A stretch of 63,277 nt of DNA from Stylophora pistillata (Eukaryota), in NCBI RefSeq assembly GCF_002571385.2, contig NW_019217917.1:583240-646516 (forward strand), written 5' to 3'. The translations under genes and the position numbers were made by a program. Numbering within the stretch: position 1 is the stretch's first letter; every line of letters begins with the position of its first letter. The notes under the pieces are model-generated. The model did no database searches and had not been told where the DNA came from. It saw nothing but the letters and a program-made list of their open reading frames with translations. Of this stretch, positions 58,714 to 61,700 are shown one piece after another.

Positions 58714-61700
58714 TGCAACCGTTGTGGGAGTTACAGGCTATGCACGACTGGAAAGAGAAGAGGAAAGCCTCAAGGTAATAGTTCAGGTCAACGAAAGAAA
58801 TTCCTACTTTGTACGCATGTCATCTCAAAATGTCTGTTTCAAAACTAAGAGAAACCTAAAAATTACCTGTCATAAACATCATTTTCATTTATCAATGCTA
58901 CAGGAGATATTTATTTACCTCTCTTTCTGCGTATCTTTCGGCCATCTGTCTGTCTTTTTCTATCAATGATGTATCTTTACTTTATTGAACCAAACTTGCA
59001 TTTAGTGTTAATAATGGAATACTCTGTATTTTACTTTGAACAGGAACCTGTAGGATAGAGAGGAACTATACGTGCACATTTAATGTATCTAAACTAACGG
59101 ATGGCAGAGTAAAAGTGGAGATCTGCTATACCCAAGGCCCATCATGGCCACACGAGGGACATCCAGCATGTTGGGCTACCAAAAGGAAAAAGGCAAGGGC
59201 TTGCGGCAGAAATTCAACAGGGGGTTCAGAGAGAGAAAATTATTGACAACACAAGAGAAAGTGTAGTGAAGAATAACTTCTCACGGCATCACCTGTTGTA
59301 AAAAAAGGATCTGCTGAACATTGAGAGAGTTTTCGGTCTGAAAGACTTTCAGCGTCACAGCAATGATCAAGATAGTGTGTTGGCGTGGATTACGGAATGG
59401 GAACAGTCAGCAGATACCAACCCCATACTCTTCTATAAGTCCAAGGATGAAATGGTGGGGGGAATTTTTGTTAATAATACAGAGTGCTTTCACGGGTTTA
59501 TTACGAATCAACTTAACGGCCTGCTCCCAGTTGGCTTGTTAGCTCAATTGGTAGAGCGCTGCACTAGTATCGCAGCGGTCAGTGGTTCGAATCCCGTACA
59601 GGCCTGAGTTTTTTCAGGTCTGATTTTCGCAATTGCTTAAATAGCGCTATCTACTGCGAGGATCGTGCATCATTCGTATCTAATACCGCAGTTCAAAACA
59701 TATGAACTTCATATATTTCATTGTATCTGACAGAGTGCTTTTATAAGGCACATGCTTCAGAAATTTGGAACCAAAGGTGTTTGTTGTGACAGTACCCATG
59801 GTACCAACACCTGCGACTTCCTTCTCACTACATGCCTCGTGCTATATGAGTATGGCGAAGGATTTCCTGCTGCATGGTGCCTTTCTAATCATGAGGATTT
59901 CACCACCATGTGTACTTTCTTTCGTAAAGTAAAAAGGAACTGCACTGGTTCCATCACGAGCACATGGTTTATGAGTGACATCGCCCCACAATACTACAAC
60001 ACGTGGATGGGAGTTATGAATGATGTCCCACGGCCCCAGAAGCTGTTGTGCACGCGGCACGAGGATAAGGCCATAACCATGGAGCTNCTACCAAAAGGAA
60101 AAAGGCAAGGGCTTGCGGCAGAAATTCAACAGGGGGTTCAGAGAGAGAAAATTATTGACAACACAAGAGAAAGTGTAGTGAAGAATAACTTCTCACGGCA
60201 TCACCTGTTGTAAAAAAAGGATCTGTTGAACATTGAGAGGGTTTTTCGGGCTGAAAGAATTTCAGCGTTACAGCAATGATCAAGATAGTGTGTTGGCGTG
60301 GATTACGGAATGGGAACAGTCAGCAGATACCAACCCCATACTCTTCTATAAGTCCAAGGATGAAATGGTGGGGGGACTTTTATGTTAATAATACAGAGTG
60401 CTTTTATAAGGCACATGCTTCAGAAATTTGGAACCAAAGGTGTTTGTTGTGACAGTACCCGTGGTACCAACACCTGCGACTTCCTTCCCACTACATGCCT
60501 CGTGCTATATGAGTATGGCGAGGGATTTCCTGCTGCATGGTGCCTTTCTAACCATGAGGATTTCACCACCATGTGTACTTTCTTTCGTAAAGTAAAAAGG
60601 AACTGCACTGGTTCCATCACGAGCACATGGTTTATGAGTGACATCGCCCCACAATACTACAACTCGTGGGTGGGAGTTATGAATGATGTCGCACGGCCCC
60701 AGAAGGTGTTGTGCACGCGGCACGAGGATAAGGCCATAACCATGGAGCTCAGAAAGAAGATTGGCGACTTATTTACCGAAGCAGAGATCTACAAAGTGTT
60801 CCGTACAGTCATAGAGCAGACGAACAAATCATTATTCGATGACCGTCTGCGAGCCCTTCTCCACCGGTTGAGTCTCTTCTCTAAGACTACCGCTTTCCAT
60901 AAGGACTTTGTGCGTGATTGGGCCCATCGGAAGCATGAGTGGGCATATTGTTTCAGAAATGGTCTCGGAATCAACACAAAAATGTTTGTGGAAGCCTTCT
61001 ACAGAGTTTTGAGATAAGGATATCTAAAAAGGGAAAGTAAACAAACGCTTAGACAACTGCATACTTAATTTATGAAAATTTGCTCGCGACAAGACCTTCG
61101 ATCGACTACTCAAAGTAACCAAGAGGAAGTCTACAAATCGAGTAAATATGATAGACGATCGTCACTTACGGAGCCTGTCCTTAGCTGTTTTGTCTGTTAA
61201 CTACGAGGAAGATGATATATGGACGATTTTTGGAGAGGACGGTAGAAGTTCGTATTAAGTCTGCCGAATAGCAAGCGCTTGTGAGGAAACAAGTTGTGGG
61301 TTGAGATGCCAGGAGTGGTGCATTTGTGTCAATCTCTATGTCTGTAACTGTCACGACAGCTTAATTACAAGCACTACTTGTAAACACATACATCTCGTGA
61401 ACAAATGTTTAAATGGCTAAGTTCCTAAAGACAACCCTAGTCTGTTCACACGCCCAGAAAATGGTTCCATGGATCCCGACTACCGGGAAGCATTTAGTGA
61501 TACCGCATACTACGACAGCACCAATGATATGAACTTTCTACGAGACTGTCTTAATAAAGCAACTGTGAACGAGAATGGGGAAAGTACAAGGGAGAGGACG
61601 AAACGATCCCTTAGAGCGAAATTGCTTAGAATGATCAGTGACGTTGAAGTCTGTGAAGATGAAGATGTACTGCAACTGTTAGAGAAAAGTATCAATTCTT

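Follow-up and report, generated by a model that had tools for sequence, protein, structure and literature searches.

A tRNA-bearing repeat unit of the coral Stylophora pistillata with the insertion signature of Penelope-like elements

A short non-coding unit that bears a tRNA-like module is inserted repeatedly in a stretch of 63,277 nt of Stylophora pistillata DNA (NCBI RefSeq assembly GCF_002571385.2, contig NW_019217917.1, positions 583,240 to 646,516 of the forward strand; hereafter the window). The geometry of its ends makes it probable that the unit is copied from multimeric or circular RNA and inserted in trans by a Penelope-like reverse transcriptase (RT) together with its GIY-YIG endonuclease. 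Three young insertions and one old fragment within 63 kb mark the unit as common (Table 1).

Insertion and target site

Copy 1 corresponds to an insert of 239 bp that separates two identical 12-mers (59479-59490 and 59730-59741), and the only further occurrence of this 12-mer on the + strand of the window is a single copy at 60393-60404, in a duplicate host segment. The insert, its perfect 12-bp target-site duplication (TSD) and the empty site near 60393, all described in an earlier note on this DNA, are confirmed by the 12-mer search and by alignment of the host duplicates; a direct repeat of at least 10 nt appeared by chance in 11 of 1500 random trials of the end-window search. The boundaries are not quite as exact as that note held: the unit sequence is also matched by the final 4 nt of the left TSD and by the first nt of the right one (5 nt together), and the element is for this reason taken to span 59487-59730. 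Copy 1 has neither a poly(A) nor a simple-repeat tail, as had been said.

An alignment of the two host duplicates (59176-60086 and 60088-60749) covers 660 bp and shows 14 mismatches and small indels, apart from a 251-bp difference that corresponds to the insert plus TSD. The duplicate segment starts directly after a single N (60087) and ends directly before that same N, and a matching pattern is found at the N at 26507, where a 480-bp duplicate (26027-26986) of 99.6% identity is likely to be another unmerged contig overlap. What the earlier note had called a duplicate region is probably the other haplotype and not a true duplication; the simplest reading would be that the insertion is heterozygous and that the assembly placed the two alleles in a false tandem. 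Among the same-species contigs of run X2, record 3 has 6 differing letters and 1 gap, which match the differences of the empty copy in count and in the places listed, and it reaches 59142, thus including 34 nt of flank that in the window is unique to the upstream side of the filled copy. Record 12 of run X5 is likewise similar to the empty copy. The listed contig depth of X2 and X5 carries the empty-type letter throughout at 59314 and 59337; contigs drop variants, and the filled allele may be present as well. From the X2 contig and the N-bounded duplicate with its few mismatches, the filled site is likely to be a recent insertion that is heterozygous in the assembled colony, and the polymorphism suggested earlier is likely.

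Table 1. Features of the unit, its copies and its host sequence (positions in the window).
Feature	Position	Strand	Source
Host sequence, decayed and related to RNase-H-like transposases (MULE/ZSWIM), in two copies separated by a single N at 60087	59176-61017	+	Pfam
Left TSD, 12 nt, last 4 nt also matching the unit	59479-59490	+	
Copy 1, 244/251 nt of one unit, 5' end about 46 nt before the tRNA, 3' end at H2	59487-59730	+	
Leader; in tandem copies it sits between H2 and the next tRNA	59487-59532	+	
tRNA-like module (A box 59540-59551, B box 59584-59594)	59533-59605	+	ARAGORN, Rfam
Predicted hairpin using the 3' strand of the acceptor, T6 run in its loop; excludes the acceptor stem	59600-59621	+	
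Hairpin with compensatory changes across subfamilies	59629-59645	+	
3'-end hotspot H1, putative first reverse-transcription start	59673-59678	+	Loose ends; copy 2 direct arm; sister-family 137-150
'Tail' from H1 to H2, with AT-rich palindrome (59700-59714), ending at hotspot H2 (59727-59730)	59679-59730	+	
Right TSD	59730-59741	+	
Empty target site in duplicate host segment, probably the other allele	60393-60404	+	
Copy 2, both arms including TSDs	11637-12027	-	BLAST, alignment
Copy 2 TSDs, 12 nt	12016-12027 and 11637-11648	-	
Copy 2 inverted arm, ending at H2	11952-12013	-	
Copy 2 direct arm, through the unit junction, ending at H1	11912-11648	-	
Copy 2, second tRNA call	11723-11795	-	ARAGORN
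Copy 3, ending at H2, cut by N gap at 28365	28288-28362	-	
Old diverged unit fragment (about 75% identity) that begins at the T run and reaches approximately H1	6416-6470	-	

Register of the unit and distribution of its ends

BLAST of the insert against the window yielded copies 2 and 3. Copy 2 reads from the 3' part of the insert through a 9-nt linker into the 5' part, which gives a circularly permuted unit of 251 nt, and a linker variant in same-species data shows that copy 1 is without only 7 nt of it. Both complete window copies have TSDs of 12 nt. The 3' ends of copies 1 and 3 lie at H2, and copy 2 has one arm at each of the two sites, H1 and H2. DNA contigs (X2, X5) and RNA reads (X22, X23) of the same species contain end-to-start joints from 59728/59730 to 59487; heterogeneous loose ends accumulate behind 59673-59678 (H1) and, for H2, some 10 nt behind 59717, with no pile-up at 59533, the tRNA start, among the best-supported loose ends listed.

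End points were counted in loci found with a 23-nt pattern, namely 121 metagenome loci (111 of them from one assembly; the scan covered 12 of 64 parts of the collection) and one locus in a contaminated bacterial genome. These 122 loci gave 124 insertions, pieces below 60 nt being dropped and ends within 12 nt of a locus end excluded. Most of the loci carry a 247-nt sister unit that is about 78% identical to the window unit; at least five subfamilies are present among the fetched loci, further ones being represented by the L001-type loci, L069/L090, L137 and L125. Of the 117 outer 3' ends counted for the sister family, 87 lie in two intervals about 50 nt apart, which were drawn after seeing the data (53 ends at 137-150 and 34 at 190-197), and the other 30 lie off these hotspots. 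The 5' ends are scattered (40 outer, 94 inner). All 47 inversions are head-to-head and none is tail-to-tail, and 26 segments exceed 260 nt, that is, more than one unit. Circular permutation, which the earlier note had predicted, is thus seen in copy 2, in same-species contigs and RNA reads, and in the sister family.

Ten of the 35 two-ended insertions have a TSD of 10-14 nt, to be compared with the 11 of 1500 random trials given above, and 25 have none of at least 10 nt, no TSD being detectable in 21. The inverted copies with two ends are 13, of which seven combine one H1 with one H2 end and each have a TSD of 10-13 nt; in the remaining six, one end or both lie off these sites and a TSD is missing, and pairs of the H1/H1 or H2/H2 type occur in none of the 13. 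The 15 nt past hotspot ends are 72% AT, compared with 61% further out (n = 55), a difference that alignment-edge effects may inflate. Two ideas on these copies were discarded: that they are exact monomers, which is unsupported, as two-ended simple insertions range from 62 to 312 nt, and a single-template twin-priming rule, in which the start of one arm is the priming point of the other, which is inseparable from the bias of the search anchor.

Proposed mobilisation

Penelope-like elements (PLEs) insert in partial tandems that are truncated at the 5' end and frequently include an inverted 5' copy, and they leave a tail of 30-40 bp at one end (PMC8557442; PMC8969392). In vitro, AT-rich DNA is cleaved on both strands by a Poseidon protein, and reverse transcription starts at two internal sites, the tail being the span between them (PMC11167929). 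The H1/H2 pattern matches this two-start-site model directly, with a tail of about 50 nt against the published 30-40. The proposed model is that multi-unit arms would require a multimeric or circular template, and that this template would be RNA in the tRNA sense. A Penelope-like RNP would bind the H1-H2 region and would cut the two strands of AT-rich DNA at points about 12 nt apart. Reverse transcription would then proceed from both nicks, with its start at H1 for one of them and at H2 for the second. A single arm would give a simple insert of the copy 1 type, and two arms an inverted insert of the copy 2 type. The earlier note had already proposed a mobilisation of Penelope type, distinct from that of SINEs, from a longer or tandem transcript; the former is supported by the match between the end geometry and published Penelope-like insertions, and the latter by junction-crossing copies and multi-unit segments. 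Several results fit the Penelope-type model less well: no RT or GIY-YIG open reading frame (ORF) is linked to the unit, the strand of the PLE remnants described below is opposite to that of the unit, a TSD of at least 10 nt is missing from 25 of 35 two-ended insertions, 30 of 117 3' ends are off-hotspot, and the RNA data described below show no discrete species; the statistics, moreover, come mostly from the diverged sister family and from a single assembly.

The tRNA-like module

ARAGORN calls a tRNA-Thr(AGT) at 59533-59605, 42 nt inside the insert, and the Rfam tRNA model scores it at 46.9 bits (E 7e-9), the Rfam scores as a whole being 35-56 bits. The position given earlier for a tRNA-Thr(AGT)-like cloverleaf therefore holds; its intactness does not, the T-stem being poorly paired. 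A comparison of 17 sequences gives pairing figures that are inflated by kinship and by the search anchor (which fixes the 5' half). Pairing is 97% in the acceptor and D stems, which show one-sided G-U changes. The T-stem is 78% paired, with one pair broken in 9 of 13 sequences, and the last pair of the anticodon stem only 29%. The A and B boxes are intact. The anticodon is AGT in the window family and GGT in the sister family, and varies among subfamilies; for this reason, and with its weak T-stem, the module is, as judged from its sequence, a tRNA look-alike and not a working tRNA. A 6-nt palindrome sits in the anticodon loop of the window family (59572-59577) and, with two bases changed, in that of the sister family. 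Only one such change was seen, and the palindrome might reflect a kissing loop, for instance as a dimerisation signal, or chance.

The T6 run that had been placed immediately after the tRNA is present (59609-59614), with a spacing of 3 nt from the end of the module (59605). The predicted hairpin around it, which competes with the acceptor stem, is 77% paired, a value reached by 36 of 500 shuffles. The leader is predicted to pair with the D and T arms of the tRNA and so to produce a rod-like fold, the fold of the whole unit is strong (z -4.1 and -6.0), and the hairpin at 59629-59645 shows compensatory changes across subfamilies. The core motif of the hammerhead is absent from either strand of the window and sister units, Rfam scans found no ribozyme family, and a CCA follows the discriminator in 0 of 122 loci. 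Rfam miRNA matches on inverted arrays were below gathering scores and were set aside.

T runs terminate transcription by Pol III. Pol III alone cannot explain multimers, because the T6-T9 run after the tRNA should stop it. The intact A and B boxes, the broken T-stem and the analogy with Helenus elements make an internal Pol III promoter the most economical reading, and by that analogy the module would most likely act as such a promoter. A putative role as an RNA-processing signal is possible. RNase Z cuts just after the discriminator, and 10 of 134 5' ends lie at 73-79, just past it (local P 0.003; P 0.09 after scan correction); this excess is spread over the T run and could come from slipping of the RT on a U tract.

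It can be argued, in that sense, that the module replaces the hammerhead as the processing signal of multimeric transcripts, forming what may be called a 'tRNA-zyme'. Pol III would start at the tRNA and read through one hairpin-masked T run. A host tRNA enzyme (RNase Z, cutting after the discriminator, RNase P or the splicing endonuclease) would then release exact monomers of about 250 nt, which would be ligated into rod-like circles and copied by a Penelope-like RT by rolling circle from two start sites. The unit size (247-251 nt), the tandems and the long TSDs match coral retrozymes (PMC7229834), and the pairing of the acceptor and D stems with its one-sided changes, the strong fold and the local excess of 5' ends point the same way. 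The loss of significance of that excess after scan correction, its position over the T run, the partly broken T-stem and the missing CCA argue against it, and this route is doubtful. The RNA data add a weak argument on the same side. Reads that map to the unit number 10,110 and 10,246 of 12,895,792 per run (0.08%; X22 and X23), in about equal orientations, and 73-75% of them run into unlike flanks. Neither a discrete RNA species, recognisable by a pile-up of starts or ends, nor a circular RNA was seen in the two runs, which are long-fragment libraries of which about 2% was read. Junction-crossing RNA reads have counterparts among the DNA contigs, and the RNA of the unit looks like its passive presence in host transcripts.

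Search for an autonomous partner

Under the Penelope-type model, a partner would supply RT and endonuclease, and the unit could also be the pseudo-LTR of an autonomous PLE, for instance a hammerhead-less Naiad, with the copies as its 5'-truncated insertions. Truncated PLE insertions leave the same ends, and Naiads without hammerheads are known and present in Acropora (PMC8557442; bioRxiv 10.64898/2026.07.22.740005). This reading is unlikely: the copies run 5' into another unit and not into an ORF, as seen in the 26 multi-unit segments and the junction joints, and no junction-adjacent body is common to the 40 upstream flanks. The earlier note had advised looking for the unit as the pseudo-LTR of elements with RT and GIY-YIG domains, and no linked ORF of either kind was found in the contig flanks. 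Flank ORFs of at least 130 aa were collected in the 122 loci and 60 were listed; among the 19 picked from these for Pfam scanning, none is an RT. A long ORF is found neither inside the unit nor attached to it in sense, and the flanks of related loci encode animal domains (Pfam).

A motif scan of 348 kb detected one GIY-YIG remnant and tblastn a second. They are decayed 3' ends of GIY-YIG Penelope-like elements (L035, 4609-4985; L025, 2301-2684) on the strand opposite to the unit, and so such elements exist in the sister loci. The L035 remnant has a hammerhead-like motif; it directly adjoins a tRNA unit, which it cuts short at position 29. Used as query in a protein search, the first remnant gave no match, and in the contig flanks searched no 3' sequence is common to the unit and an autonomous PLE.

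DNA search of 63 genomes found coral-like units in G001 and G032 only, other matches being weak and nearly all confined to the tRNA part. Both are bacterial assemblies whose contigs with the unit and retrotransposon ORFs (L122/L124 and L125 in G001; L137 and L181-L184 in G032) are host-animal contamination. RT matches in G001 (10 of 10 loci) and in G032 (5 of 47 matches inspected) proved to be bacterial RT types or fragments of LINE or LTR elements. Scans of viral contigs gave 0 matches with two patterns, a phage match (L123) being due to chance.

Comparison with known elements

Animal non-LTR retrozymes consist of non-coding tandem units of 150-450 bp, each with a type I hammerhead, and give monomeric linear and circular RNA (PMC7229834). 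The coral unit likewise forms non-coding tandem units (247-251 nt, 26 segments above 260 nt), and shares with non-LTR retrozymes (220-245 bp in Acropora) a low GC content, TSDs above 4 bp and a self-paired fold, as well as the proposed dependence on PLEs (PMC7229834; bioRxiv 10.64898/2026.07.22.740005). Where the retrozyme has its hammerhead, however, the coral unit has a tRNA-like module with A and B boxes. A term search of the main text of bioRxiv 10.64898/2026.07.22.740005 found neither 'tRNA' nor 'Pol III'.

With endonuclease-bearing (EN+) PLEs (Penelope/Poseidon, Neptune, Hydra, Naiad) the unit has in common partial tandems, 5' truncation, an inverted 5' arm, a tail at one end and AT-rich targets (PMC8557442; PMC11167929). 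It differs from them in having no ORF, a tail of about 50 nt and no sequence link found to an autonomous family, and the excerpts of PMC8557442 and PMC11167929 describe no tRNA module for EN+ PLEs. Non-autonomous Chlamys such as MRC1, with head-to-tail derivatives in Chlamydomonas, also resemble the coral unit. Helenus TRIMs are non-autonomous as well and carry a tRNA-like sequence that is proposed as a Pol III promoter and inflates tRNA gene calls (PMC10886601). They alone have two LTRs, a PBS, a PPT, TSDs of 4-5 bp and a reliance on LTR elements (PMC10886601), whereas the TSDs of the coral unit are 10-14 nt long and an LTR-internal-LTR layout is absent from it.

SINEs of tRNA origin are defined by Pol III boxes 10-15 nt from the 5' end of the element, a LINE-derived or simple-repeat tail, and a TSD (PMC8969392). 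The coral unit resembles them in its tRNA-derived Pol III boxes, its non-autonomy, its TSDs and its length, and it could be seen as an ordinary tRNA-SINE of about 250 nt, mobilised by a LINE with 5' truncation, twin-priming inversions and occasional tandem insertion. It is unlike them in its internal tRNA (46 nt inside copy 1), its circular permutation, its two fixed 3' ends, the T run right after the tRNA and the lack of a LINE-like or simple-repeat tail. LINE twin priming leads to variable internal priming, whereas the outer ends of the inverted arms lie at fixed sites. The earlier note had held that most copies of a SINE would start at the 5' end of the tRNA and share a LINE-like 3' tail. 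The 23-nt search pattern spans the tRNA start and conceals copies that begin there; among 41 inverted arms without the pattern, none starts at -3 to +4 of the tRNA, and a LINE-like tail is absent. A SINE is thus very unlikely, being already largely refuted by the end map of the sister family and the same-species loose ends. A DNA-level repeat (satellite, Helitron- or MITE-like) that carries the tRNA as a passenger and spreads through recombination or through rolling-circle replication of DNA could also yield tandem units and circular permutation through DNA circles, but is scarcely credible given the strict polarity of the copies (fixed 3' and scattered 5' ends; head-to-head inversions only, 47 against 0), their variable TSDs of 10-14 nt and the absence of terminal inverted repeats.

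With a tRNA module and no ribozyme, the Penelope-type unit widens the group of retrozyme-like, Penelope-dependent non-autonomous elements. A literature search, with subscription journals, Dfam and Repbase outside its scope, found no description of a tRNA-bearing Penelope-dependent unit, and the excerpts of an anemone repeat library paper (PMC12070523) make no mention of one; the element is common enough that it may already have been curated, labelled as a SINE or as 'unknown'.

Significance

By definition SINEs are partners of LINEs, and a hammerhead defines the non-autonomous partners that have been proposed for animal PLEs, so that a tRNA-bearing, ribozyme-free unit with the insertion signature of Penelope widens both categories. 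It would be a short natural substrate on which the two-start-site model of Penelope reverse transcription could be tested, and its insertions, probably polymorphic, could serve as markers for coral populations. The unit is also expected to inflate tRNA gene counts in corals, as ARAGORN calls both complete window copies. The processing route through the tRNA module, if true, would make the unit an abundant and still-active class of coral retroelement; it would give the Penelope order its own equivalent of SINEs and would show how host enzymes can produce circular RNA from retroelements.

Other features of the window

A separate repeat family with a minimal-hammerhead-like motif is found at 5556-5770, 44199-44428 and 55905-55994 and in L042, L057 and L059. 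It has head-to-head arms (5556-5770, 44199-44428) with unequal 3' ends, a geometry like that of the tRNA unit, to which it is nevertheless unrelated; its 3' part contains an AT-rich hairpin of 9 bp. A quick search found no TSD, and the family probably consists of Penelope pseudo-LTR remnants. An inverted repeat of 156 nt (97%) lies in a locally repeated segment (56660-57053, 53313-53589 and 57643-57761), also unrelated to the unit. Two ORFs stand out: one of 291 aa with an integrase core (PF24764; 35980-36855, - strand), a probable DNA-transposon remnant, and one with a metallo-beta-lactamase fold (38322-39215, + strand) that has a single in-frame stop at 38766-38768. A short MITE-like repeat with apparent terminal inverted repeats occurs at 1089-1264, 14659-14788 and 42487-42660.
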